A stretch of 64,000 nucleotides of DNA from an uncultured bacterium (GCA_963727525.1 CAVSGO010000007.1:960001-1024000); one strand, 5' to 3'; positions 8,433 to 56,908 are shown, numbered from the stretch's first letter. The notes: generated by a model not told the origin, from the letters alone. Program-made: numbers and translations.

Positions 8433-9944
8433 CTAGAGCCCGTAGAGCCTGATTTTCCGGTAGAGAGTGCGCTCGCTGATCCCCAGCCGCCCGGCCGCCC
8501 GCCGCCGATTGCCCCCCGCCGCCCGCAGAGCGTTGGCGATGAGTGCCCGTTCGGCGACCTGCAGATCGCCCTCGGCCGGCGCGTCGCCGTTCTCCGCCGC
8601 CGGCGACGAGAACACCACGCCGTCGTGCGGGATCTGCCCCGGCGCCATCCTCCCGCTCCCGACGGCGCTCGCCAGATCGTCGAGCTGGTTGCGGATGGCC
8701 TTGATGTCCTGGTGCAACTCCAGCAACGTGCTGGCCAGAAGCCCCGGATCGAGACCGTTGGCGCCCTGGCGCGTGTCGAGCAACGCCGGCAGGTAGGGCG
8801 AGCGGTGGCTCTGGTCGGCCGCCAGCACATCGTCTGGCAGGTCTTCCAGCTCGATCAAACCGCGTTGCTTCATCACCGCCGCGGCCCGCACCACATTGCG
8901 CAGCTCCCGGATGTTTCCGGGCCAGCTATGCTGCCGCAAGGCCTGCTTCGTGTGCCGGCTGAAGCCACGTACCGCCAGGCCATGCTCGCGGTTCTCCAGC
9001 TTGAGGAAGTGGTCGGCCAGGATCGGGATGTCCTCCTTGCGCTCACGCAGCGGCGGCGTGGGGATGACGATGACCCGCAGCCGGTAGTAGAGGTCCTGCC
9101 GGAAGCGACCCGCCTCGACGTCGCGTACGAGATCGCGGTTGGTCGCAGCGACGAGGCGAATATCGCTGTGCAGGACCCCCTTGCCGCCGACTGGCGTGAA
9201 CTCCCCGGTCTCCAGCGCGCGCAGGAAGCGCGTCTGCATGCCCAGCGGCATCTCCCCTACCTCGTCGAGGAAGAGCGTCCCACCGTCGGCGCGCTTGAAC
9301 ACACCATTGTGATCGGCCACGGCACCGGTGAAGGCGCCGCGCATATGGCCAAAGAGTTCGCTCTCCAGGACACCCTCGCCAATGGCCCCGCAATTGAGGC
9401 TGATGAACGGGGCGGCCCGGCGGGGAGAATGACGGTGTATGGCCCGGGCCACGAGTTCCTTGCCGGTGCCGCTCTCTCCCTGGATGAGCACGTTGATGTC
9501 CACGGGCGCCGCCTGGGCGATGAGCGCGAGCATCTGCCCCACCGCGCGCGACCGACCGACGATGCCGCTGTCCGCTCGGACCTGGCGCAGTTGCAGCAGG
9601 CGCCGCACCACGCTCTGCAAATCGGCGCCGTCGACGTCCGTCGGCAGCACCCGCACCATGGCCTCGCTGGCTTGCACCGCGTCGTCGTCGAGCTCGGCCG
9701 GATCGCCGAGCAGGACGAGGTCCGTATCGCCCGGCAAGCCGAGGGCCTTGCCGACGGTGCCGCGCGCGCCCTGGAAGCCGGTGGTGTCGAAGAGGAAGAG
9801 CGCTGCCTGACCGGACGCGAGGCGCGAAAGTGCGGCCGGCGCATCCTCGAAGACGAAGATCTCGGTATCGGGCAAGCGCCAGTCGGCCGCGGTCTTGTAG
9901 AGCGCCGGACGCTTGCCGAGCAGGATGAGGGCGTGTCTGGACAT
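8433..9944 (-). CDS. sigma54-dependent enhancer-binding protein with degenerate receiver-like N-terminus
   Basis: GESGTGKE, ESELFGH, GAFTGA, LFLDEVGE, WPGNIREL, Fis HTH; N-terminus lacks the acidic pocket. Confidence 0.9.
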   Translation of the reverse strand: MSRHALILLGKRPALYKTAADWRLPDTEIFVFEDAPAALSRLASGQAALFLFDTTGFQGARGTVGKALGLPGDTDLVLLGDPAELDDDAVQASEAMVRVLPTDVDGADLQSVVRRLLQLRQVRADSGIVGRSRAVGQMLALIAQAAPVDINVLIQGESGTGKELVARAIHRHSPRRAAPFISLNCGAIGEGVLESELFGHMRGAFTGAVADHNGVFKRADGGTLFLDEVGEMPLGMQTRFLRALETGEFTPVGGKGVLHSDIRLVAATNRDLVRDVEAGRFRQDLYYRLRVIVIPTPPLRERKEDIPILADHFLKLENREHGLAVRGFSRHTKQALRQHSWPGNIRELRNVVRAAAVMKQRGLIELEDLPDDVLAADQSHRSPYLPALLDTRQGANGLDPGLLASTLLELHQDIKAIRNQLDDLASAVGSGRMAPGQIPHDGVVFSSPAAENGDAPAEGDLQVAERALIANALRAAGGNRRRAAGRLGISERTLYRKIRLYGL

Positions 9945-10007
9945 GGTGCCCGGAATCATACACACGCCCGGGCGACAGGCCAGCAGAAACTCGCGGACGC
10001 GTACAGG

Positions 10008-10886
10008 CTAGGCGATGTGGACGAACGCCGCCGCGTCGGCGATGGCCTCGCGGATGGCGTCATGATGCGTGACGACGTCGTCGCGATCGAGCGGGACGGC
10101 GGCGAACAGATCTCGCTCGGTGACACCCGCGGTCGCGAATCCGAGGTCGCCACGCGGCGGCACGAGTACGTTCGCGAGGTAGTCCCCGAGAGCCACGATC
10201 GTGACGGCATCTCCCTCGTGCGTGCCGGCGTGGTGGTCACCGATGCAGACCACGAGTTCGGGCGGGAAGAGCCATGACTCCGCCATCGCCGCGCCCGCCT
10301 GCGCATGGTCGAATCCGAAGACATGTCGCTCCTGCGCGACGAGCGTGCTGCCGCTGCGCGCACGATCGGCGATCACACGGTCGTACGTGCCCGGCGCATG
10401 GAGCGTGAGCACGAACTTCCCCAGGTCGTGGAGCAGGCCGCCGGTGAAGACGAGTTCGGGATCCGGAAACCGCACGAGGCGGGCGAGATAGCGCGATGTG
10501 GCGCCCACGGCCACGCAATGCCGCCAGATCTCCTTGTAGTCGATCTGCGGCCGCCGCTCGCTGAACGCCTTGCCGAGACTCGATACCACGGCCACGCAGA
10601 TGGCGACCTGGCGCACCGTGCGCATGCCGAGCACCGCAACGCACTCCTGCACCGACGTCAGTGTGCGCGACTTCTGGTAGTACGGCGAGTTCGCGAGGCG
10701 CAGGACCTTGCTGGCCAGCGGCGGGTCGTGGCGGATGACCTCGGCGAGGTCGCCGGCGCTCGAGCTGGGATCGTCGATGAGCTGCAGGATCCTGGTGAGG
10801 ATCTCCGGGATCGTCGGCAGGTCGTCGACGGTCGCCTGCAGCGTCGTGAGGGTCAGGATCGGCTGGTCGTCGTCGCGCGCGTTCAC
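10008..10886 (-). CDS. HDOD domain protein
   Basis: LPTIP, DPPLASKVLRLANSPYY, WRHC, GLLHDLGK, GFDHAQAG; GTG start at 10886. Confidence 0.9.
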   Translation of the reverse strand: MNARDDDQPILTLTTLQATVDDLPTIPEILTRILQLIDDPSSSAGDLAEVIRHDPPLASKVLRLANSPYYQKSRTLTSVQECVAVLGMRTVRQVAICVAVVSSLGKAFSERRPQIDYKEIWRHCVAVGATSRYLARLVRFPDPELVFTGGLLHDLGKFVLTLHAPGTYDRVIADRARSGSTLVAQERHVFGFDHAQAGAAMAESWLFPPELVVCIGDHHAGTHEGDAVTIVALGDYLANVLVPPRGDLGFATAGVTERDLFAAVPLDRDDVVTHHDAIREAIADAAAFVHIA

Positions 10887-10902
10887 GGCCCGGCTCCTTG
10901 GC

Positions 10903-11808
10903 TCAAATGAAGATCTCCATCTCGGTCTCGAGCGTCCGCTGCAACTGGAGCGAGACCCCGTCGAGATCGGATTGTTGCAGACCCAATCGGGCCAGCGACG
11001 GCGACTCGTAGAGGGCGAGGTCGGGCTCATCCTGGAAACCGATGCCATGCTTGTGGCAGATCTGGTTGCCGAGATCGAGGCAGAGCAGGAGCGTGTTGTC
11101 CGACGCCAATGCTGCCGGATCGTGATGGTGTCCGATGATGTCCTCGAGCAGCGGTGACAGCTTCCACTTGTTGACAAGCAGCGACCCCGCCTGGGCGTGA
11201 TCGAATTGCAGGATCTCGCGCTCGGTCTCACAGAAGGTGCGGTGTTCGTTGTAGACGATCTGGACGATCTCGTCGAAGCGGTCCGGCTCCTGCAGGTTGA
11301 GCACGAGCTTGCCGATGTCGTGCATCAGACCCGCCAGGAACGCCTCTTCCGCCAGCGCGGGCCAGCGTCCCGCCACGAGCAGACGGCAGGCGAAGGCGCA
11401 CCCGATCGAGTGCTCCCACAGCAGCCGCTCCTTCAGTCCCATGCGCGCGCCACCGCTCGTGTAGAGGTTGCGTGCCGCGCTCGTGACGACAAGGCTGCGG
11501 ATGGAGTTGAAGCCGAGCATCACGATCGCCTCGGAGAGCGTCTTGATGCGGCGGCTGCAGGCGTACATGGCCGAATTGGCGATCTTGAGGATGCGCGCCG
11601 TCATGGCCTGATCGTCGGCGATGACCTGCTGGAGCTGGGCGGCCGAGGTATTGGGATCGGACGAGAGTTCCAGGACCTTGCTGGCGACATGGGGCATCGC
11701 CGGCAGATCCCGGGTGGTCATGATCAGGGCTTTGAGCTTGGCGTCGCCCCCAGATGGTGCGCCCGCGGAGGGCGTTCCAGGTTCGGACGTCGCCGGAATG
11801 CTGGTCAT
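10903..11808 (-). CDS. HDOD domain protein
   Basis: LPAMP, DQAMTARILKIANSAMY, WEHS, GLMHDIGK, FDHAQAG. Confidence 0.92.
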   Translation of the reverse strand: MTSIPATSEPGTPSAGAPSGGDAKLKALIMTTRDLPAMPHVASKVLELSSDPNTSAAQLQQVIADDQAMTARILKIANSAMYACSRRIKTLSEAIVMLGFNSIRSLVVTSAARNLYTSGGARMGLKERLLWEHSIGCAFACRLLVAGRWPALAEEAFLAGLMHDIGKLVLNLQEPDRFDEIVQIVYNEHRTFCETEREILQFDHAQAGSLLVNKWKLSPLLEDIIGHHHDPAALASDNTLLLCLDLGNQICHKHGIGFQDEPDLALYESPSLARLGLQQSDLDGVSLQLQRTLETEMEIFI

Positions 11809-20402: not shown

Positions 20403-20417
20403 GCAACGGGCGTGCCA
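20403..20417 (-). promoter_or_regulatory. sigma54 promoter for fliPQR-flhBAF
   Basis: TGGCAC-GCCCG-TTGC, consensus -24/-12. Confidence 0.85.
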
Positions 20418-29737: not shown

Positions 29738-29752
29738 GCAACCGCGGTGCCA
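29738..29752 (-). promoter_or_regulatory. sigma54 promoter for motE-fliK-flgDE-flbD-motAB-fliLMNO
   Basis: TGGCAC-CGCGG-TTGC. Confidence 0.85.
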
Positions 29753-35788: not shown

Positions 35789-36199
35789 CTAGACGCTGCG
35801 ACCGCGGATCGCGCCCCGCAGCATGCTGTAACGCATGGTGAGCAGCCGGGTGGTCAGGCGGTAGGTGAGATCGTTCGTCGCGAGATCGGTCATCTCGTGA
35901 TCGATGTCCACGTTGTTCGTTCCGTTGTCGAAAGCGCTGGCGGTCTCGCGTACTTCGCCGCTCGTATCGTCGATGCCACGCGCGCCGATGGCCAGGTGCT
36001 GCTGGTGCGTTCGCGTGCCCGCAATCCGCGCCTGGGCACCGCTGAGGAGATCCTCGAAACGGTATTCCTGCGCCCGGTAGCCCTGGGTGTCGATGTTGGC
36101 GACGTTCTCGGAGATCACCTCGTGGCGCCGGGCGTAGACGCCCACGGCCCGCTTGAGGTCGTTCAGGTGTTCATGCGAGAAGATGCCGGTCATGCTCAT
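35789..36199 (-). CDS. flgB: Rod protein FlgB
   Basis: SENVANIDTQGY, NNVDIDHEM. Confidence 0.96.
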   Translation of the reverse strand: MSMTGIFSHEHLNDLKRAVGVYARRHEVISENVANIDTQGYRAQEYRFEDLLSGAQARIAGTRTHQQHLAIGARGIDDTSGEVRETASAFDNGTNNVDIDHEMTDLATNDLTYRLTTRLLTMRYSMLRGAIRGRSV

Positions 36200-36203
36200 G
36201 GTC

Positions 36204-37577
36204 CTAGCTCGGGATGGTCACGCCGAGCTCGTGGTACAGGTTCAGCTTGTTGCGCAACGTCCGGACACTGATGCCCAGTTCCGTGGCAGCCTGAGTGCGA
36301 TTCCCGGCCGTTTTGCGGAGCTTCCGCAAGATCAGTTCCTGCTCCATCTCCCGCAGCGTGAGATCTCCGCCCAGGGTCGCCGGCGTCTCAGCCACATGGT
36401 CGATCTCGTCGTTCAGCCCGAGCAGCGCCTCTTCCATCTCACCGCCCTGGCTCATGATCACGGCGCGCTCGACCACGTTCTGGAGCTGACGCACGTTGCC
36501 GGGCCAATCGAGCATCGTCAGGACGTGCAACGCGCGGTCGGTCACCGCGAGCACGGGTTTCCCGTTCTCGGCGCAGAAGGTTTGCACGAAGTGGTGCACG
36601 AGGATGGGGATGTCGGCCTTGCGGTCGCGCAGCGGCGCGAGATGGAGGGGAATGACGTTGAGGCGGAAGAAGAGGTCCTCGCGAAATTCCTTCTGCAGGA
36701 TCGCTTCCTTGAGATTGCGATTCGACGTGGCGATGATCCGCACGTCGGTGCGCGTGGCCGCCCGCGCCCCCAGCCGCGTGAACTCGCGTTCCTGCAAGAC
36801 ACGCAGCAGCTTGGCCTGCATGGCGCACGGCATCTCGCTGATCTCGTCGAGCAGCAGCGTGCCGCCGTTGGCCAGCTCGAACTTGCCCGCCCGCGCCTGC
36901 ACCGCACCGGTGAATGCGCCGCGCTCGTAGCCGAACAGCTCACCCTCGAGCAGAGTCTCGGGAATGGCCGCGCAATTGAGGCGGATGAACGGCGCCTCGC
37001 GGCGTGAGCTGGCGAGGTGGATGGCGCGCGCCGCCACCTCCTTGCCCGTGCCGCTTTCGCCCTGCAGCAGCACCGTGCCGCGGCTGTCGGCGATCATCTC
37101 GATGCGCTCTCGCATCTTCACCATGGCGGGGCTGCTGCCCAGCAGGCCCAGGTGTTTGCGCTGGTTCTGCAGCGACGTGCGCAACGTCCGGTTCTCCTGG
37201 CGCAGCGCGCGCAGCTCGAAAGCCCGCGTGAGCGTGTGCTCGAGCTGCTCCATGCCGAAGGGTTTCGTGAGGTAGTCCACGGCGCCGCACTTCGTGGCCT
37301 CGACAGCCTCCTTGATCGTGCCGAAAGCGGTCATCATGACGACCAGCGGCGGCTCGGGGATCTCGCTCTGGATCGCCGCGAGCAGGTTGAGCCCATCGCC
37401 GCCGGGCATGCGAACGTCCGACAGCACGAGGTCCACGGACTGGGTCTTCAGCCGCGCCAGAGCCTCGACACCATTGCTCGCAGTGGCCACCTGGTAGCGA
37501 CCGTTCATCGATGCGCTCAGGAACTCGCGCATGGTCTGCTCGTCGTCCACCACCAGAATGCTCGGTTTCTTCGCCAT
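36204..37577 (-). CDS. sigma54-dependent response regulator (FlrC/FleR/FlgR-like)
   Basis: REC (VVDDE, SDVRMP, TKPF), GESGTGKE, GAFTGA, HTH. Confidence 0.93.
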   Translation of the reverse strand: MAKKPSILVVDDEQTMREFLSASMNGRYQVATASNGVEALARLKTQSVDLVLSDVRMPGGDGLNLLAAIQSEIPEPPLVVMMTAFGTIKEAVEATKCGAVDYLTKPFGMEQLEHTLTRAFELRALRQENRTLRTSLQNQRKHLGLLGSSPAMVKMRERIEMIADSRGTVLLQGESGTGKEVAARAIHLASSRREAPFIRLNCAAIPETLLEGELFGYERGAFTGAVQARAGKFELANGGTLLLDEISEMPCAMQAKLLRVLQEREFTRLGARAATRTDVRIIATSNRNLKEAILQKEFREDLFFRLNVIPLHLAPLRDRKADIPILVHHFVQTFCAENGKPVLAVTDRALHVLTMLDWPGNVRQLQNVVERAVIMSQGGEMEEALLGLNDEIDHVAETPATLGGDLTLREMEQELILRKLRKTAGNRTQAATELGISVRTLRNKLNLYHELGVTIPS

Positions 37578-37594
37578 GTTCTTCCCTTCTGCGC

Positions 37595-38347
37595 TCAATC
37601 GCCGAACGCGGCCGCGGTATCCGGCCAGCCGACCTCGAGTGTCACCACGGTGCCCGACCCGGGCGCGCTACGCAGTCCCCAGCCGAGCCCATACATGTCC
37701 ATGATCGTATCGACGCGGGCCAGACCGATGCCCAGGTGTCCGTCTCGCGTGGTCACGAACGGATCCATGGCCTGCGGCAGCAGTTCGGGCGCGATGCCCG
37801 GACCGTCATCCGCCAGCGCCACATAGAGGTGGCCATCGCCCGCCTGACCGGTCTCGACGGTCACCGTCACCTCGCCGGACCGGCTCTCGGCGCTGTTCGC
37901 GAAGATCTCCTGGAGCACGAGTTCGAGATCGCGCACGGGCAGTAGCAACTGTCCGCCCAGCGCGGGCCGGTTCGCCACTCGCAGATTGGTATGGCGCGAT
38001 TGCGCCATCGTGATCGCCCGATGCACGGCCACGTCCGGCTGGTCGTCGCCCAGCGTCTGCTGCTCTGGAAACGCCATGTCCTGTACCGACCGGTAGATCG
38101 TCTCCAGCCTCTCGACCTCGGCGATGATTTTGCGCGCCCAGACCTGGGGGCGGGACGCCTCGTCCGGTCCGCGCGCGATCAGGCTCGCATATCCCTTGAT
38201 GCCGCACAGGCTGTTGCTGGTCTTGTGCAGGTACCCGTGCAGCAGACGGCCCCGGCAGTCGGTCGCACTGCCGGCGGGCCGTTCCCATGCGGACACCATC
38301 GGGGTCTCTGCCATCAGCAAGGTGTCACCTGGCCCGTTCGTGGTCAT
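37595..38347 (-). CDS. Sensorless histidine-kinase-like protein (atypical HisKA plus HATPase)
   Basis: HKTSNSL H-box, EIFANS N-box, DDGPG, PFVTTR, GHLGIGL; ATGA overlap with upstream gene. Confidence 0.8.
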   Translation of the reverse strand: MTTNGPGDTLLMAETPMVSAWERPAGSATDCRGRLLHGYLHKTSNSLCGIKGYASLIARGPDEASRPQVWARKIIAEVERLETIYRSVQDMAFPEQQTLGDDQPDVAVHRAITMAQSRHTNLRVANRPALGGQLLLPVRDLELVLQEIFANSAESRSGEVTVTVETGQAGDGHLYVALADDGPGIAPELLPQAMDPFVTTRDGHLGIGLARVDTIMDMYGLGWGLRSAPGSGTVVTLEVGWPDTAAAFGD

Positions 38348-38733
38348 CGGGCGTGCTCGAGCAGCACGCGGTCGTTCTCTTCCTCGCACTGCAGGATGTC
38401 CTCGATGAGCTGTCCCACATCCTGCAGAGCCCGGTGGAGGCTGGCGCGGCTCGCGGCGCTCCACTGGTCGCGGCCCTCGCGCCAGCGGTTCTTCGCCAAC
38501 CCTTCCGAGCTCTCCAGCCTGCCGATCGCCTCGAGGCGCCGCTTCTTGTCCTGCAATAGCCGCCGGACCTCGCCCAGCGAGCGCCCGGATCCGATGGCGT
38601 CCCCCTGGCGGCGCGAGATCGACAGCACCTCGCCATACAGACGCAGTTCCTCTTCGTAGAGGCCGAGGAGACGGTCCAGCAGTTGACGCTCTTCGCGGGC
38701 GAGGTCAGGGCTGATAGAGACTGGCCGTGCCAT
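38344..38733 (-). CDS. FlgN/FliT-like helical protein
   Basis: 129 aa; LYEEELRLY..LSISRRQ...KKRRLEAI..LE...EEENDRVL; RBS GAGGAGG. Confidence 0.65.
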   Translation of the reverse strand: MARPVSISPDLAREERQLLDRLLGLYEEELRLYGEVLSISRRQGDAIGSGRSLGEVRRLLQDKKRRLEAIGRLESSEGLAKNRWREGRDQWSAASRASLHRALQDVGQLIEDILQCEEENDRVLLEHAR

Positions 38734-39799
38734 GCGTCGCCCCCTCCTCGCGAATCCGGTTGATGTCGTCGGCGAGGCTCGCCATCTCGCAGGCGAAGCT
38801 GCGCCAGGGATCGGCGAGCGGGTCGTCGCACAGCTCGCCGTACACGGCGCCCGCGCGCTGATGGCGGCCGGCCAGCAAGTCGTAGTTGGCGAGCTGCAGG
38901 CGCGCCCAGCGACTGGCCCCGGGCAACGTCGACGCGGCCAGCGCCTTGTAGAGCGGCTCCGCCGCGGTCGCATCGCCCGTGAGGAAGAGCAGGTCGGGCA
39001 CAGCCACGAGGAACCACGTGCGCTGGCTCTCCGTCAGACCGTACGAGAGTCCGCCCTGGGGCAACAGCGTGCGAGCCGTGGTCAGGCTGGCCTCCCACGC
39101 GCCCAGGGCGCTCAGCGCGTAGGCCTGCCAGAACACGAGACGACCGCTGTGAGCTGTGGTGTCGGCCGCCATGGTCCGCGTGAGCAGACGCAGGTTCGCC
39201 TCGTCGCGACGCCCAAGCAGGAAGCGGTAGGCTACGATCAGCTCACTCTCCCGACCCTGGAATCGCCGGGTGCCGAGCACGTTGAGGAGGTGCTGGATCA
39301 CGGCCACGGAATCTTCCACGGCCGCGGCCGTCGCAAGCGACTCGGTGGCGATCTCGCTTGTGAAGTCGCCGTCGCTGTCGCGCGCGGCCGCATTGTCGTA
39401 CCACACGAGGGCGGAGTCGAACTCGGCCAGATGGCGGTAGTTGCGGGCCAGGTTGAGCGCGTGCAACGCGGTCATTCCCGTGGCATCGCGCAGGAGCCGC
39501 GGCTGCTTCTCGAAGGATGCGAGCGCGCGGCCGATAGCGATGAGTTGCAGGGGATCGCCCGCGGCCTCGGGGACGAACTCCTGCCCGAAGGGATAGAGCA
39601 GACGCCCCTCGTCCTGATCGGCGGCCGCTCGCGCCGCCAGGGTCTGCGTCACGGCGTGCAACCATTCGAGGTAGCCGTCGCTCTCGACGGCCGTCAGGCC
39701 GGCGCCCCGCCCGATCTGCGGCAGCGCCGCCAGTATGAGCAGCGCGAGTATGAGCCACCTATTGCGTCCTGGTGCTTGTGCGAGCCGATGCCGGTGCAA
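38705..39799 (-). CDS. Secreted TPR-like protein of unknown function
   Basis: TTG start after GGAGGGG; signal-peptide-like segment; TPR-like helices (LARNYRHLAEFDSALVWY, WQAYALSALGAWEAS). Confidence 0.7.
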   Translation of the reverse strand: MHRHRLAQAPGRNRWLILALLILAALPQIGRGAGLTAVESDGYLEWLHAVTQTLAARAAADQDEGRLLYPFGQEFVPEAAGDPLQLIAIGRALASFEKQPRLLRDATGMTALHALNLARNYRHLAEFDSALVWYDNAAARDSDGDFTSEIATESLATAAAVEDSVAVIQHLLNVLGTRRFQGRESELIVAYRFLLGRRDEANLRLLTRTMAADTTAHSGRLVFWQAYALSALGAWEASLTTARTLLPQGGLSYGLTESQRTWFLVAVPDLLFLTGDATAAEPLYKALAASTLPGASRWARLQLANYDLLAGRHQRAGAVYGELCDDPLADPWRSFACEMASLADDINRIREEGATHGTASLYQP

Positions 39800-39838
39800 T
39801 GCGTCCCCTCCCGGGATGTCTGGTTGCCGGCCGCCAGC

Positions 39839-39853
39839 GCAAACGGCGTGCCT
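39839..39853 (-). promoter_or_regulatory. sigma54 promoter for TPR-flgN-like-HK-RR-flgBC-fliEFGHIJ
   Basis: AGGCAC-GCCGT-TTGC. Confidence 0.75.
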
Positions 39854-39953: not shown

Positions 39954-39968
39954 CGGCAAGATTTGCCG
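39954..39968. promoter_or_regulatory. Putative enhancer palindrome
   Basis: CGGCAAGATTTGCCG, about 100 bp upstream of a sigma54 promoter. Confidence 0.65.
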
Positions 39969-40069
39969 GGAACGCATGGGCCCGCCCTGCCGCCGTGTCG
40001 GCGACCGGGCGGGCCATCGATGAGGTCAACCTCCACGCACCGGTGGATGGATTGTGGGCAACCCCGTGG

Positions 40070-41493
<1,424 letters not shown>

Positions 41494-41497
<4 letters not shown>

Positions 41498-43743
41498 GAC
41501 GCCTCCTCGGCTCGCGCTCGCGCGCCGGCCGTGTTCTGGCGAGGCAGCAGCACCCGCATGCGCGTGACGTCGCCGTCACGCTCCGCACGGATCTCCCCGC
41601 CGTGGGCGGTCACGACCTTCTGGCTGATCGCCAGGCCGAGACCGGTTCCGGTATTCTTGGTGGTGAAGAAGGGGCGAAACAGCGCCTCGACCGCGATGTC
41701 GCCGAAGCCCGGCCCGTCGTCCTCGACGACGATCTCCAGCCCCGCGCCCAGCCGCCGTACCCCGTCGGCACAATTGGCGAGCACGAGCTGGGGACGATCG
41801 CGAAGCCGTACGACCACGTGACCGCCGTCCGGCACCGCATCGATGGCGTTGATGACGAGATTCAGCAGCACCTGCTTGATCTGCACCGGGTCCACGTCGA
41901 TCGCCCCGGCGGCCTCGCCCTCTGCCGCGACCGCGACGTTCGCCGCCATGGCGCGCGGGCGTGCGAGGGCAATGCAGTCGCGCACCAGCCCGTCGACGTT
42001 CACCATCCGCCGCTGCGGCGCGTACGGTCGCACGAACTGGAGCATGCGCGTGATCGTCTGCTCGATGCGTTCGATCTCGGCGGTGATCACGTCGAGGTAG
42101 CGCTTGCGCGGGTCGTCCCCCGGCAGGTGCTCGGCGAGCAGTTCCGCCTGGGCGCTCAGGCCCATGAGCGGGTTGCGGATCTCGTGCGCGAGCGTGGCCG
42201 ACATCTCCACGAGACCCTCGAGTCGTTCCGCACGCAGCCGGGCCGCCTCGGCTCGGTGCGCCTCGCGCAGATCCTCAGCCACGACAAGCAACCAGCGTTC
42301 GTCGCCCCAGCGTCCCGGCATCGGCGAAGCGTGCACCTGCACGGGTACCGCCTCGCCGTCGCGGCCGACGAGGCTCCCGGTGCCCTGGAATGGCGCAGGG
42401 CTCCGGAACAGGACAGGGAACGGCACCTCCGCCATGGCATCGAGCCGGAGCCGCCGGTCGAGAAAGATCTCCGGCAGTTCCTCGCAATCCACGCCCGCGG
42501 GCTGCGCCCGCTCCTCGCCGCGCCCTCGCCCCACGGTGAAGACACCGGCCGGGTCGGCTGTCTCCACGGCGCTCGCCGCGCCCAGGAGCACTCGCGCTGC
42601 GCGGTTGACGTAGATCGTACGCCCACGTTCGTCGCAGACCCAGATGGCCGCCCGCACGGTCTCGAGGACCCGCGTGTTGAAGGCACCGATCTCGCGCAGT
42701 CGATCGAGCATCTGCGCGCCCGCCACCTCCTCCGAGAGCACCACCTGCACCATCTGCAGGAACGGCAGCAAGCTCGCCGCGCGCGCCTCCCGCTCGGTAG
42801 CGGTCGCGTAGAGCAGCAGCAGGAACCCCAGCCGCACGCCCTGGTGCTCCAGCGGCAGCGCCATGATGCGCCCCGCACCCGCCGAACCGTCCCGCGCCAC
42901 GGCGAAGATCCCTGGTGCCAGCAGGCACTCGGCCACGTCGCCGTCGACCTGGCGGTTGAGATTGAGCAGCACCTTGTCCCAGGAGCTCTCGTCCCAGCGG
43001 TACGTCTGCCGGGGCGCGTAGTCGCCGCCCGACGCGGCACGCAGGACCACGGCCGTTCCGACGGCACCCACGAACTCCGCGAGGTACTCGAGAAAGCCAC
43101 GCAACGTCGCGTCCCAGTTGCTGGCGGTGCTCAGGTCCCGCCCCAGCCGGTAGAGCAGGGAAAGCTGCGACATGTGAGTGGAGAGCCGGCTGTTGGCGTC
43201 CTCGAGATCGAGCTGCGTCTGCAGAAGCGCCTCAGCCTCGTGCGCGACCTCGTCGCGCACCCGGCGTCGCTGGGCGTGGAGGAGTTCCTGCGCCGACCTC
43301 GCCTCGCGTCGCACCGACTCCTTCGTCGCGCGCGTGGCGACCGGATCGCCGCCGCGCCGGAACAGGGCGCGCCAGGTGCCCCGGTCCGCGCGTGCGGGCA
43401 CGACGTCATGGGCTCCGGTCCGCAGGAGGGCGGCACACTGCGCGGCGGACATCTGGCCCCCCACGATCACGACGCGCACCTGGGGATGGCCTCGCCGAAG
43501 CGACCGCACCCACGCCTCGACCTCCGTCCAGTCGCCCTCCGGCGCCACGTGCGACCCGTCCACGACGACCCACGCCTCGTATGGCGCCCGGGCGCCCAGA
43601 GCACGGCGGCACGCGCGCAGGGAGGAATAGGTCGTGGGGTCGCTCCCGCGATGACCGCGCCCGCTCAGCCAATCGGCCCGGCCCACGCCGCAGGCATCGG
43701 CGGGAAGGCTGAGATCGTCGGGCAGGACGGCGCGCGGTGGCAC
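41494..43743 (-). CDS. Cytoplasmic sensor histidine kinase (REC-like, coiled coil, GAF-like, PAS, HisKA, HATPase)
   Basis: AHEIRNPL, NLVINAIDA, DDGPG, PFFTTK, GTGLGL; ATGA-coupled to the RR. Confidence 0.9.
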
Positions 43744-46935: not shown

Positions 46936-47775
46936 ATGGGTCTGCGCGTCAATACCAACGTCGCTTCGCTCAATGCGCAGCGGCACCTCTACAACACGAC
47001 GATGAACTTCAACAGGTCGATGGAGCGGTTGAGTTCCGGACTGCGGATCAACCGCTCTGGCGACGACGCGGCGGGACTCGCCATCAGCGAGGGCCTCAAG
47101 AGCGACATCCGCGCCCTCGACCAGGCCAGCCGCAATGCGGCCGACGGCATCTCTCTCGTGCAGACCGCGGAGGGCGCACTGGACGAGGTCAACAACATCC
47201 TGCTGCGCCTGCGCGAACTGGCGGAACAGGCGGCCACCGAGACGCTGGGCGCCACCGAGCGCAACTACCTGGACGGGGAGTTCCAGGAGCTGCTCGGCGA
47301 GATCGACCGCATCAGCGTGACGGCCGAATTCAACGGCATCCGCCTGCTCGACGGCAGCGCCGACGTGCTCGACGTGCAGGTCGGTATCGGCACCGATGCC
47401 ACCACCAGCGCCGTGTCCATCGATCTCAGCCAGCCGATGAACACGACGCAGCTCTCGCTGAACGGCACCACGATCGCCGGCACCGACGGAACCGTGGCGC
47501 GTGCCCTGATCGGCACTATCGAGGCGGCCACGGGCACCGTGAGCCAGCTGCGCGCAAGCTTCGGCGCGGCCCAGAACCGTCTCGAGACATCGATCCGCAA
47601 CATCGGCATGACCGTGGAGAATCTCAGCGCGGCGAACAGCCGCATCCGCGATGTCGACGTGGCTGTGGAGACCTCGAACATGACGTCGCTGCAGATCCTG
47701 CAGCAGGCCGGCGTGTCGATCCTCTCCCAGGCCAACATGACGTCGTCGCTCGCCCTGAAACTCCTCCAGGGCTAG
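46936..47775 (+). CDS. fliC: Flagellin 1 (279 aa)
   Basis: RVNTNVAS, RLSSGLRIN, DDAAGLAISE, GAAQNRL, SRIRDVD, QAN. Confidence 0.97.
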   Translation: MGLRVNTNVASLNAQRHLYNTTMNFNRSMERLSSGLRINRSGDDAAGLAISEGLKSDIRALDQASRNAADGISLVQTAEGALDEVNNILLRLRELAEQAATETLGATERNYLDGEFQELLGEIDRISVTAEFNGIRLLDGSADVLDVQVGIGTDATTSAVSIDLSQPMNTTQLSLNGTTIAGTDGTVARALIGTIEAATGTVSQLRASFGAAQNRLETSIRNIGMTVENLSAANSRIRDVDVAVETSNMTSLQILQQAGVSILSQANMTSSLALKLLQG

Positions 47776-47804
47776 ACGCGGCCGCGCAGACTCCGCCCGT
47801 GATA

Positions 47805-47834
47805 CGAGGGCGCGCCAACCCCGGCGCGCCCTCG
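47805..47834 (+). terminator. Hairpin after fliC1
   Basis: CGAGGGCGCGCC-N6-GGCGCGCCCTCG. Confidence 0.7.
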
Positions 47835-47855
47835 CCCCGCCCCAGGAGATTCCTC

Positions 47856-47882
47856 TCAAGTTCGCCGCCGCTACGTCGATCA
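47856..47882 (+). promoter_or_regulatory. sigma28 promoter for fliC2
   Basis: TCAA-N15-GTCGATCA. Confidence 0.7.
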
Positions 47883-47971
47883 TCTGCGCGTCACGTGTTA
47901 TCCACGGACGGATGACGTGCGAGCCTCGGACGTCCTCGTCCCGCCAAGCAGAGTCTTCAAGGAGGAAGATC

Positions 47972-48799
47972 ATGGGTATCCGCATCAACACCAACATCTC
48001 GTCGATCAACGCGCAGCGGCACCTGTATAACGCCAGCGTCGACTTCAACAAGTCCATGGAGAAGCTGTCCAGCGGCCTGCGCATCAACCGCGCCAGCGAT
48101 GATGCCGCCGGTCTGGCCATCTCCGAGGGCTTGAAGAGCGACATCCGTGCGCTCGACCAGGCCAGCCGCAATGCTGCCGACGGCGTGTCCCTTGCGCAGA
48201 CCGCCGAGGGTGCGCTGGACGAGGTCAGCAACATCCTGCTGCGCATGAAGGAGCTGACGGAGCAGAGCCTGAACGGCACGCTGGGCGATTCGGAGCGGGG
48301 CTACCTCGATTCCGAGTACACCGCGCTGCAGGGCGAGATCGACCGCATCGCGCAGTCGACCGAGTTCAACGGCATCCACCTGCTCGACGCCACCGGCACC
48401 AACGTGAACATCCAGGTCGGTATCGGCACCCAAACATACGACTCGATCGCCATCGACCTGAGCACCAACCGTGACAGTGCGAACCTCGGCGTCAGCACCG
48501 CCATCGACACGGCCGGCAATGCCGCAACGGCGATGGGCGAGATCGACACGGCCATCGACACCGTGAGCTCCGCGCGCGCCGACTTCGGTGCGATCCAGAA
48601 CCGTCTGGAAAGCTCGATCCGCAACATCGCGAACACATCGGAGAACCTGAACGCTGCCAACAGCCGTATCCGCGACGTCGACGTGGCGTCCGAATCGGCC
48701 AAGATGATCAGTTCCCAGATCCTGCAGCAGGCTGGTGTGTCCATCCTGGCGCAGGCCAACACCGTTCCGAGCCTGGCGATGACGCTGCTGCGCGGTTAG
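47972..48799 (+). CDS. fliC: Flagellin 2 (275 aa)
   Basis: Flagellin N- and C-terminal motifs; RBS AGGAGG. Confidence 0.97.
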   Translation: MGIRINTNISSINAQRHLYNASVDFNKSMEKLSSGLRINRASDDAAGLAISEGLKSDIRALDQASRNAADGVSLAQTAEGALDEVSNILLRMKELTEQSLNGTLGDSERGYLDSEYTALQGEIDRIAQSTEFNGIHLLDATGTNVNIQVGIGTQTYDSIAIDLSTNRDSANLGVSTAIDTAGNAATAMGEIDTAIDTVSSARADFGAIQNRLESSIRNIANTSENLNAANSRIRDVDVASESAKMISSQILQQAGVSILAQANTVPSLAMTLLRG

Positions 48800-48830
48800 C
48801 CGCGTCGGGCGACACGAGGGTGACGGTCCA

Positions 48831-48858
48831 AGGGCCCGGCGCAAGTCGGGCCCTCTTC
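48831..48858 (+). terminator. Terminator after fliC2
   Basis: AGGGCCCGGC-GCAA-GTCGGGCCCT followed by CTTC. Confidence 0.7.
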
Positions 48859-48897
48859 GCGCCCGCGGCTAGAGCCATAAGCGCAAATATAATTCCC

Positions 48898-48924
48898 TAA
48901 AGTCAAAACTAATGATGCCGACAA
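48898..48924 (+). promoter_or_regulatory. sigma28 promoter for fliC3
   Basis: TAAA-N15-GCCGACAA with an AT-rich upstream tract. Confidence 0.85.
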
Positions 48925-49014
48925 TATTCCTAGATGACCTCAAATTCATCCGGCGTCGCCCCGCCCCATGAATCCGCGGTCGCAAGACAGGAATCTCGTT
49001 CAGGGAGGACGAAC

Positions 49015-49839
49015 ATGGGTATCCGCATCAACACCAACGTCGCGTCGATCAACGCGCAGCGGCACCTGTACAACGCCAGCGTCGACTTCAACAAGTCCAT
49101 GGAGAAGCTGTCCAGTGGCTTGCGCATCAACCGCGCCAGCGATGATGCCGCCGGTCTGGCCATCTCCGAGGGCTTGAAGAGCGATATCCGTGCGCTCGAC
49201 CAGGCCAGCCGCAACGCTGCCGACGGCGTGTCCCTCACGCAGACCGCTGAGGGTGCGCTGGACGAGGTCAGCAACATCCTGCTGCGCATGAAGGAGCTGA
49301 CGGAGCAGAGCCTGAACGGCACGCTGGGCGATTCGGAGCGGGGTTACCTCGATTCCGAGTACACCGCGCTGCAGGGCGAGATCGACCGCATCGCGCAGTC
49401 GACCGAGTTCAACGGCATCCACCTGCTCGACTCCACCGGCACCAACGTGAACATCCAGGTCGGTATCGGCACCCAGGGGTACGACTCGATCGCCGTGGAC
49501 CTGAGCACCAATCGTGACAGCGCGACCCTCGGTGTCAGCACCGGCATCGACACGGCCGGCAACGCCGCCACGGCGATGGGTGAGATCGACACGGCCATCG
49601 ACACCGTGAGCTCCGCGCGCGCCGACTTCGGCGCGATCCAGAACCGTCTGGAGAGCTCGATCCGCAACATCGCGAACACGTCGGAGAACCTGAGCGCTGC
49701 CAACAGCCGTATCCGCGACGTCGACGTGGCGTCCGAATCGGCCAAGATGATCAGCGCCCAGATCCTGCAGCAGGCTGGTGTGTCCATCCTGGCGCAGGCC
49801 AACACGACCCCGAGTCTGGCGATGTCTCTGCTTCGGTAG
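49015..49839 (+). CDS. fliC: Flagellin 3 (274 aa), near-identical to flagellin 2
   Basis: Flagellin motifs; RBS GGAGG. Confidence 0.97.
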   Translation: MGIRINTNVASINAQRHLYNASVDFNKSMEKLSSGLRINRASDDAAGLAISEGLKSDIRALDQASRNAADGVSLTQTAEGALDEVSNILLRMKELTEQSLNGTLGDSERGYLDSEYTALQGEIDRIAQSTEFNGIHLLDSTGTNVNIQVGIGTQGYDSIAVDLSTNRDSATLGVSTGIDTAGNAATAMGEIDTAIDTVSSARADFGAIQNRLESSIRNIANTSENLSAANSRIRDVDVASESAKMISAQILQQAGVSILAQANTTPSLAMSLLR

Positions 49840-52205: not shown

Positions 52206-52529
52206 GTGCCGACCTGCGAGAGCATCATCACGTCCCTGCTGGCGGTCTCGTCCGACCTGCGCGAAGCGTTGCGTGCGACCGACACAGCCACCTGCGACGC
52301 CTTGCTGGTCCATCGTCAGGCCCTCCTCGAGACGCTTCCCGGCGTTCTGGCCGATCTGTCCGCCTGCGAGCGCGAAGCCTGCCTGGCCACCCTCGGTGAC
52401 GATGACGGCGCGCTGCAGAACGCGTTCCGGGTGGTGCGCAACGAGGTCGCCAGCCAGCTCGCACAGCGCCAGGCATCCCCGGCCGCGCCCGACAGCCGAC
52501 AGCCGCGCCGGTTAGACCGTCGCGCCTGA
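52206..52529 (+). CDS. FliT-like small helical protein
   Basis: Follows fliS; helical; ends RRLDRRA. Confidence 0.55.
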   Translation: MPTCESIITSLLAVSSDLREALRATDTATCDALLVHRQALLETLPGVLADLSACEREACLATLGDDDGALQNAFRVVRNEVASQLAQRQASPAAPDSRQPRRLDRRA

Positions 52530-56380: not shown

Positions 56381-56908
56381 CTACGCCTGACGCACAAGGA
56401 CGCCGCCCGGCCCCGACTGGGTCGGACGCGCTTCGCCATCGTAACAACCGGCCGGATCCTCGAGCACGCCGCGACGAAAGAGCGAAGCTTCCTCGGCGAC
56501 GAGGTCGAGGCAGAAGGCGGCGAGGCGGCGATTCAGCTCATTCTGGCGCGCCAGGGCCAGCGCCGCCCGGCGGACGCGCGTCAGCCGCGGGGCCAGTTCG
56601 CGGCGCGCCGTCGGCGGCAGAGCCGGCAGCGCTGCCGTCAGCGAGGTCGGCCGCGAGGCGACGGTCGCCAGCAGCGCGGCCGCACACCGCTCGCGCTGGA
56701 TGCGCACCGCGTCGGCCGGGGGCAACGATTGCTGCCACCGCTGGGCATTTTCCGCCAGCGCAGGGACGTCGTGATGCTCCATGCAATGCTCCTGTTCCAT
56801 CGCGAGTGCGAGCAGGATGGCGTACTGCTCGGCTTCATCTTCAAGCAATGCGCAAAGTTGGCGCGTTTCCGCGTCGTTCGTCATGGCGGCCTGCGTGGGA
56901 TGCATCAT
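56381..56908 (-). CDS. flgN: Chaperone FlgN
   Basis: Helical; QNELNRRL and Y-x-x-x motif near the end; immediately before flgK. Confidence 0.75.
   Translation of the reverse strand: MMHPTQAAMTNDAETRQLCALLEDEAEQYAILLALAMEQEHCMEHHDVPALAENAQRWQQSLPPADAVRIQRERCAAALLATVASRPTSLTAALPALPPTARRELAPRLTRVRRAALALARQNELNRRLAAFCLDLVAEEASLFRRGVLEDPAGCYDGEARPTQSGPGGVLVRQA

Follow-up and report, generated by a model that had tools for sequence, protein, structure and literature searches.

Directly ahead of flgB, the 64,000-nucleotide window analysed here (the whole stretch GCA_963727525.1 CAVSGO010000007.1:960001-1024000, from an uncultured bacterium of the phylum Candidatus (Ca.) Krumholzibacteriota) carries four tightly packed genes, and the question this locus raises is whether they make up one machine that checks flagellar assembly or several parts that can be taken apart. 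The genes encode a tetratricopeptide repeat protein (TPR), a FlgN/FliT-like protein (NL), a sensorless histidine kinase (HK*) and a response regulator (RR); the kinase-regulator pair directly upstream is called HKup-RRup. A preliminary description took the four for a single new cassette in which NL serves as the detached sensor of an input-less kinase. Judging from sequence, we consider it probable that the locus consists of two interleaved modules, in which HK*-RR would be the second tier of a two-step sigma54 cascade and NL-TPR an accessory. Because the four genes form two separable parts, the locus would be a variation on an assembly checkpoint already known, not a new machine of four parts. 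The argument draws on gene content, separability, the joint loss of a promoter and residue patterns, from which activities, binding partners and directions of control are read.

TPR, NL, HK*, RR and flgB all lie on the minus strand, with a 29-bp overlap between TPR and NL, an ATGA overlap between NL and HK*, and gaps of 17 bp between HK* and RR and of 4 bp between RR and flgB. Coordinates and conservation of the promoter core bear out the four genes, their spacing and their sigma54 promoter as first described. The locus and its upstream neighbours are as follows:

38705..39799, minus strand: TPR gene, TTG start with ribosome-binding site, 364 aa; predicted exported TPR-superhelix protein
38344..38733, minus strand: NL, 129 aa; third FlgN/FliT-superfamily paralog, no C-terminal Tyr helix in family f1
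37595..38347, minus strand: HK*, 250 aa; sensorless DHp-CA histidine kinase-like protein, Lys after the phospho-His, Glu in the N-box
36204..37577, minus strand: RR, 457 aa; sigma54 enhancer-binding response regulator
35789..36199, minus strand: flgB, first structural gene on the same transcript
40070..43743, minus strand: HKup and RRup, a PAS-HisKA kinase with canonical H-box (start not fixed) and a sigma54 regulator
39839..39852, minus strand: sigma54 (-24/-12) core of the class II operon TPR ... fliJ, from pattern match and conservation

To survey the arrangement, we fetched 70 loci, comprising the 30 non-own hits of a first NL search and 40 of the 87 other hits of a phylum-wide search; since the latter were picked to cover every distant family and genera with suspected losses, counts over the 70 loci do not describe a random sample. 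Families are coded f1 (that of the window) to f9. Gene order proved conserved, as the first reading of the locus anticipated: TPR lies upstream of NL in 68/70 loci, and NL is followed by HK* and RR in 39, by neither in 27, by RR only in 2, by a kinase remnant in 1 and by a contig end in 1. Specifically, TPR-NL-flgB adjacency survives in all seven NL-bearing families, and HK* and RR stand between NL and flgB in three of them (f1, f5 and f6). In the three genomes examined from f3, f4 and f8 (G027, G083 and G060), HKup-RRup, a sigma54 site, HK*, RR and fliA follow one another at another locus, with no TPR beside this split module and no NL-like open reading frame (ORF) within it. The single four-gene cassette does not survive these arrangements, as TPR-NL-flgB occurs without HK*-RR in 27/70 loci and HK*-RR occurs without TPR or NL beside it in 3/3 genomes examined from f3, f4 and f8. 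From the locus survey and the split modules, the constant partner of HK*-RR is HKup-RRup, and that of TPR-NL is flgB.

The same separation is seen at genome level. NL is present in 118 of the 208 genomes of the phylum, with one strong match each, rod genes in 122 and both in 116; of the 6 rod-bearing genomes that lack NL, three are f1 assemblies in fragments and the others belong to f2/f9, where the two that were opened have a different gene order. The flagellar clusters of f2 and f9 (L179 and L180; G035 and G195) carry neither TPR nor NL, and in G195 a kinase and a sigma54 regulator directly precede flgB. HK* occurs in 63 of the 91 f1 genomes in an unselected count and in 0/24 genomes of eight genera, although NL is present in 23 of these 24. 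Whole-genome searches of five of the 24 revealed no orthologue of HK* or RR elsewhere, and their flagellin and FliI are intact. In a midpoint-rooted FastTree phylogeny of FlgC-FliF-FliG, built from the 56 loci with enough sequence, the linked NL-HK* state falls in f1, f5 and f6, and NL and HK* have come apart on about four independent occasions.

What HK*-RR may control is indicated by a second promoter within the cluster:

29738..29751, minus strand: internal sigma54 core before the hook operon (MotE-like gene, fliK, flgD, flgE), from pattern match and co-loss with RR

The RR of the window has Asp54, Thr83, Lys105 and the GAFTGA motif intact, and across the RR set Asp54 is kept in 39/40, Lys105 in 40/40 and GAFTGA in 34/40. 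Of 27 flagellated genomes that carry RR, 23 have the hook promoter, against 0/13 without an intact RR, and in most RR-less genomes the end of fliJ runs straight into the next start at the position of the hook promoter. The sigma54 promoter of fliP is kept in 19/19 genomes, with or without RR. Because the hook promoter and RR are lost together, HK*-RR probably activates the hook genes as a second tier, in the manner of FlgSR, FleSR and FlrBC, with 29738-29751 as the probable target of RR, and to this extent the co-loss favours the assembly-tier activator proposed in the preliminary description.

Several observations weigh against this assignment. The 13 RR-less genomes represent only two or three independent losses; three g39 genomes have HK*-RR and lack the hook promoter, one of the three being poorly anchored; the RR-bearing G110 has only a one-mismatch hook site; and G062 (92% complete) and G075 (90%) keep the hook promoter with no HK* or RR orthologue found. 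Additionally, flgBC, which encode rod parts, share a transcript with HK*-RR, unlike the targets of FlgSR and FlrBC. Another reading would make HK*-RR incidental, a pair that merely sits in a flagellar operon and controls something unrelated; it is dispensable for a complete flagellar gene set and is kept in G006, which has neither rod nor hook. In every locus seen, the pair nonetheless lies in a flagellar context, before flgB or fliA, and its loss matches the loss of one flagellar promoter, which leaves an incidental role very improbable.

The kinase itself departs from the usual pattern. Within the 250 aa of HK*, HATPase_c scores above its Pfam cut-off and HisKA below, with no membrane segment. 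As the label of an input-less kinase implied, a sensor domain is absent from all 22 homologues with a located start, whose N-termini are short and variable, and the phospho-His lies about 30-40 residues from the start in those 21 of the 22 homologues that have an H-box. The best matches of HK* are the HisKA kinases AtoS and ZraS, Vibrio cholerae FlrB ranks third among 81 solved-structure matches behind ZraS and KinB, and a plasmid search for FleS/FlrB-like references returned generic kinases only. A residue census covered 80 distinct sequences from 104 loci. The His does not vary (80/80), and HK* retains the N, G1, F and G2 boxes. The residue after the His (H+1) is Lys in 61, Arg in 8, Gln in 3, Asn in 3 and His in 2 of the 80; an acid occurs in one, a canonical kinase wrongly included, and hence in 0/79 true members, and the kinases of the window's own genome have an acid there in 32/36 cases. 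At H+4 the residue is Asn in 70 and Ser in 10 of 80. In the Lys-type HK* of f1, the N-box Asn is replaced by Glu in 50 and by Asp in 4 (54/60), a replacement that does not occur in HK* of f3-f6 and f8. We infer that the two domains of the kinase still meet in a catalytic pose. The g39 kinases at L078 and L079 (G127 and G131) carry Ala in place of the N-box acid, and g39 also lacks the hook promoter; the g39 HK* is possibly a kinase losing its job.

These residues admit a different chemistry. Kinase activity is described as requiring an acid at H+1, whereas phosphatase activity does without that acid and depends on Asn at H+4 (PMC3510030, Willett and Kirby; PMC8292422, Multamaki et al.), so that by this rule the pattern of HK* reads as kinase-dead and phosphatase-competent. 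HK* would then be a phosphatase or inhibitor that holds RR off, RR would be phosphorylated by HKup or small donors, and the checkpoint would remove HK* activity. The lack of an H+1 acid, the H+4 Asn in 70/80 and the absence of a compensating N-box acid in f5 and f6 all fit such an enzyme, whereas the invariant His and the kept N, G1, F and G2 boxes do not. V. cholerae FlrB has Gln at H+1 (chain 9p6i) and autophosphorylates (PMC12607845), and according to a preprint the H+1 acid rule is not general (10.64898/2026.02.27.708494); FlrB together with the N-box acid of f1 tempers the kinase-dead reading, which we regard as somewhat unlikely. G038, which keeps RR and the hook promoter without HK*, fits either sign of control. 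In any case, the phosphatase alternative alters only the chemistry, and the two-module picture stays.

For f1 in particular, Lys paired with an N-box acid suggests an HWE-like charge swap in a protein built on the HisKA frame. HWE/HisKA2 kinases have a basic H+1 residue and Glu for the first N-box Asn (bioRxiv 10.1101/2020.06.26.173310; PMC12148442), features that the Lys-type HK* of f1 shares; unlike them, HK* mostly has Lys rather than Arg, keeps its F-box and finds AtoS/ZraS as best matches, and neither HWE_HK nor HisKA_2 of Pfam matched HK* at E up to 1, so the likeness looks convergent. The Deinococcus bacteriophytochrome DrBphP, a phosphatase-only HisKA protein, also lacks the H+1 acid, has lost the first N-box Asn and keeps the phosphatase residue (PMC8292422), but HK* differs from it in having no sensor domain and, in f1, an acid at the partner position. 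On these grounds, the chances that f1 HK* is active as a kinase through the Lys/Glu swap are about even; that it is a phosphatase only is a lesser possibility, and a role as a phosphotransfer relay is less likely again. It tells against the swap as a general route to activity that HK* of f6 has no acid at either position, yet its genomes keep the hook promoter in 3/3 cases.

NL raises the question of which chaperone it resembles and what it does. Its Pfam FlgN (PF05130) score is 22.9 bits against a cut-off of 30.5, and 27 of 30 NL members match the FlgN profile weakly (best E 4e-7); none of the 30 matches FliT (PF05400), for which the profile-profile probability is 14%. NL is predicted to be a helical bundle (pLDDT 93.7), and its model aligns with Pseudomonas aeruginosa FlgN 2fup with Z 11.2 and a root-mean-square deviation of 2.5 over 103 residues, tied with syntaxin and Smac bundles; FliT structures 5gna (Z 9.4) and 3h3m (Z 8.9) come amid generic helical bundles, and a Foldseek comparison for the FlgN/FliT fold gave E 0.38. 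Two further genes of this kind lie in the window:

52206..52529, plus strand: FliT-like gene, in the canonical place after fliS
56381..56908, minus strand: canonical flgN, before flgK, above the Pfam cut-off

The canonical flgN at 56381 was correctly recognised from the start, and NL falls below the cut-off that it passes. NL was considered as the missing FliT and rejected, as the gene at 52206-52529, which has no Pfam FliT match, has a counterpart after fliS in 19/19 loci; the place beside flgK is filled by the separate canonical flgN, not by NL. The presence of canonical flgN and the FliT-like gene makes NL a third paralog, so that the view of NL as an extra FlgN/FliT-like protein stands, with a FliT-like gene that had been missed.

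A tyrosine-bearing C-terminal tail is present in 22 of 23 NL proteins of f3, f5, f7 and f8 and in 0/48 of f1, f4 and f6 (0/41 in f1). FlgN and FliT dock on FlhA via a C-terminal Tyr-bearing helix (PMC5932034), and FlhA docking would therefore be lost in the three tail-less families. Tail-less Salmonella variants bind FliJ, not FlhA, and damp export (bioRxiv 10.1101/2020.01.10.902387), which by analogy suggests an export-side role for NL. Trp84 of NL is aromatic in all of 71 sequences but that of G006, with one more sequence cut off there; its equivalence to the FliJ-binding Trp78 of Salmonella FlgN is a positional inference only, as the profiles missed the solved FlgN structures. The nearest Atlas cluster of NL is mostly Ca. 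Krumholzibacteriota, Atlas neighbours in Fibrobacterota and Verrucomicrobiota score below 0.9 and are leads only, and the NL profile found nothing in four other genomes or in 201 sampled genomes of G208's phylum, a search without positive control.

Does NL signal to HK*, as the preliminary description held? In that model NL, besides being a chaperone, would switch HK* by export status, according to whether it is free or bound to FliJ or early substrates. NL and HK* are translationally coupled, the HK* start lying at most 17 bases from the NL stop in 22/22 loci, the linked state looks ancestral in the tree, and genomes with unlinked HK*-RR still carry NL; moreover, FliT and FlgN are proxies of subunit supply in Salmonella (bioRxiv 10.1101/2020.01.10.902387). 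On the other side, the key residues of NL are all kept in lineages without HK* (15/15), and NL shows no relaxation of its own, NL and TPR both evolving about 1.4-fold faster relative to FliF. Furthermore, HK*-RR relocated with HKup-RRup and not with NL, and no NL-kinase fusion was seen among the 150 best of 1011 matches (longest 241 aa; 84 scanned for domains, none with a kinase domain). A complex prediction for an HK* dimer with NL (score 0.09, mark 0.32) speaks neither for nor against binding. The detached sensor is not supported overall, and we hold it to be quite unlikely. A combined version, in which NL is a third chaperone class for rod subunits or FliJ and, when unloaded, binds the charge-swapped HK* so as to read early-substrate supply into hook transcription, appears slighter still.

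The residual link between NL and HK* comes from one decaying cluster, that of G006 (98% complete; L174-L175, G006:C16:140000-162000), which has no rod, FlhA, flagellin or TPR match. Hook, export gate and filament are gone; the remnant consists of csrA, fliW and flgM, the two regulator pairs, NL, the C-terminal half of fliF, and fliG, motAB, fliL, fliM, fliN and fliA. NL-HK*-RR is thus kept where the export gate is gone, and the only non-aromatic residue at Trp84 occurs here, as if one face of NL had lost its partner while another remained in use. An NL that stays intact despite loss of TPR, rod, FlhA and flagellin is not predicted by a purely export-side role and counts against that part of our proposal; in this single genome, NL may be kept for translational coupling. 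In favour of our proposal, the C-terminal half of FliF, FliG, FliM and FliN, which G006 keeps along with HK*-RR, are the parts to which FlgS binds in Campylobacter jejuni (PMC7064773). It is possible that the remnant is a filament-less rotor-stator with another use. Two other clusters are also in decay: in G141 (L181, G141:C1:8000-24000) the TPR gene is broken, flgB is reduced to half, flgC is absent and flagellin gives no match, with FlhA present, and in G022 (L208, G022:C13) the hook and motor genes lie in fragments and RR is degenerate.

The partner of NL, the TPR protein, has no Pfam match; its label comes from the predicted superhelical fold and the Atlas, with only generic TPR-level structure matches. 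A hydrophobicity heuristic finds an N-terminal hydrophobic segment in 24 of 29 TPR proteins, so the secreted TPR protein of the preliminary description does look exported, whereas a specific kinship to the periplasmic motor scaffolds PflA/PflB of Campylobacter did not emerge. The protein shares with these a predicted exported superhelix and a flagellar operon, but it has 364 aa, and its matches are generic TPR structures, in which the C. jejuni scaffold chain 9hmf_K takes 38th place (E 0.02). With TPR exported and HK* cytoplasmic and free of membrane segments, a direct TPR-HK* link is implausible.

The tie of TPR-NL to flgB invites a reading in which neither protein signals: NL would be an export chaperone for early rod subunits such as FlgB, FlgC or FliE, and TPR would guide periplasmic rod assembly. 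The survival of TPR-NL-flgB in all seven NL families and the tracking of rod genes by NL (116/122) agree with it, as do the service of late substrates by canonical FlgN and FliT and the FlhA-docking-like Tyr tail in 22/23 NL of f3, f5, f7 and f8. Early subunits are, however, described as unchaperoned in Salmonella (PMC8983047), the tail is found in 0/48 NL of f1, f4 and f6, and NL persists in the rod-less G006. We judge this reading rather unlikely.

The promoter of the operon offers a further view of which regulator acts where. The window holds 4 sigma54 core matches against 1.22 expected (5 of 100 shuffles reach 4), and all 4 lie directly before flagellar gene starts, namely TPR, the MotE-like gene that heads fliK-flgD-flgE-motAB (fliK being named from position only), fliP and flgF; besides those at 39839 and 29738, the promoters are at 20403 and 62242. 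In the TPR promoter, the GG and TTGC columns are invariant in 17/17 aligned upstream regions; a short regular expression finds it in 35/36 family regions, and a strict one in 40/68 loci and in none of 12 f5 loci. flgB has no sigma54 site of its own (0/67 loci). As for the enhancer that the preliminary description reported without coordinates, the obvious palindrome at 39954-39968 was rejected as not conserved in the upstream alignment, while a conserved gapped palindrome remains as the candidate:

40044..40060, minus strand: candidate enhancer, gapped palindrome (6-bp arms, 5-bp spacer) situated some 208 bp upstream of the sigma54 core

De novo sampling over 35 of the 36 regions scored 10.3 at spacer 5 and 7.1-8.4 at the other 21 spacers, with a shuffle control that covered four spacers, spacer 5 not among them. 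Among the 20 loci where HK*-RR is intact and the core could be placed, 17 carry the palindrome, 166-233 bp upstream; among the 14 loci without HK*-RR, just 4 keep it. Since it is mostly gone where HK*-RR is gone, RR rather than RRup could bind it, which would run counter to a cascade in which HKup-RRup acts first. Between RRup and the promoter, at 39979-40015, there is also a G+C-rich inverted repeat of 17 bp with no T run, not conserved in the alignment.

On the two-module proposal, events would most likely run as follows. HKup-RRup, the probable first tier, would turn on the class II operon, so that HK* and RR would be produced alongside FliF, FliG and the export ATPase. HK* would then set RR phosphorylation, and RR would activate the internal sigma54 promoter of hook and motor genes; lineages that lost HK*-RR lost the hook promoter as well and would transcribe the hook genes by read-through from the class II operon. 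TPR and NL would serve basal-body construction as a core accessory, TPR as an exported scaffold and NL as a third chaperone of the FlgN/FliT type, most likely working at the export apparatus. HK* would need no dedicated sensor protein in this scheme. As its input, we tentatively favour docking on FliF/FliG via the catalytic core; the absence of any input beyond delayed synthesis is a weaker candidate, contact with HKup is weaker again, and NL as the input is improbable.

Such a scheme has close counterparts. FlgSR of Campylobacter and Helicobacter, FlrBC of Vibrio and FleSR of Pseudomonas likewise pair a cytoplasmic kinase with a sigma54 regulator for rod and hook genes (PMC7064773). FlrB, moreover, shares with HK* the lack of an H+1 acid. 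The order regulator-kinase-regulator-fliEFG seen here also resembles the gene orders fleQ-fleSR-fliEFG and flrA-flrBC-fliEFG. Unlike these kinases, HK* has no N-terminal PAS domain or coiled coil, only about 30 variable residues, and carries the Lys/Glu swap; the first tier here is a full kinase-regulator pair, flgBC lie on the transcript of the HK*-RR pair, two extra genes are present and HK*-RR has been lost repeatedly. The systems are thus likened by features, not by orthology. NL in turn may have the three-helix fold of FlgN and FliT and matches the FlgN profile weakly, and the short NL resembles the engineered FliT94 and FlgN-Y122A, which bind FliJ, not FlhA (bioRxiv 10.1101/2020.01.10.902387); it differs from FlgN and FliT as a third paralog in an early operon beside flgB, with the Tyr helix naturally lost in three families. 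No description of this arrangement came up in listings of open-access papers, in keeping with its being called undescribed, but its working would be that of the FlgSR/FlrBC/FleSR checkpoint.

Several features of the surrounding clusters are recorded here. At the beginning of HKup (41494-43743) there is a receiver-like domain, which can be recognised in f3 and f8 (L172 and L173) and has no Pfam match in the window. The cluster ends at 8433-11808 with an HDOD gene and a further conserved gene (8433-9965), whose like also follows fliA in the split module of f3, f4 and f8 and occurs in G006. Three flagellin genes lie at 46936-49839, with a clear sigma28-type site only for the third (48898-48921); across loci (L178, L182-L201), there is one flagellin gene in each of the 9 f1 loci without intact HK*-RR and one to six in those with the pair. 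The flagellar clusters of G007, G171 and G110 (L202, L206 and L218) have no motA or motB in the stretch from the flbD region to fliL.

Taken together, these findings map for the first time, in a form open to testing, how flagella may be regulated in an uncultured phylum, and the lineages without the second tier, in which hook genes are fused to the early operon, serve as natural knock-outs. HK* may be used as a minimal natural probe of how sensor-less checkpoint kinases read assembly, and also of whether a HisKA kinase can follow the HWE kinases in giving up the catalytic acid of its H-box for one in the N-box. NL, for its part, would be the first member of a chaperone family to be linked with early flagellar genes, whose subunits are held to be unchaperoned.

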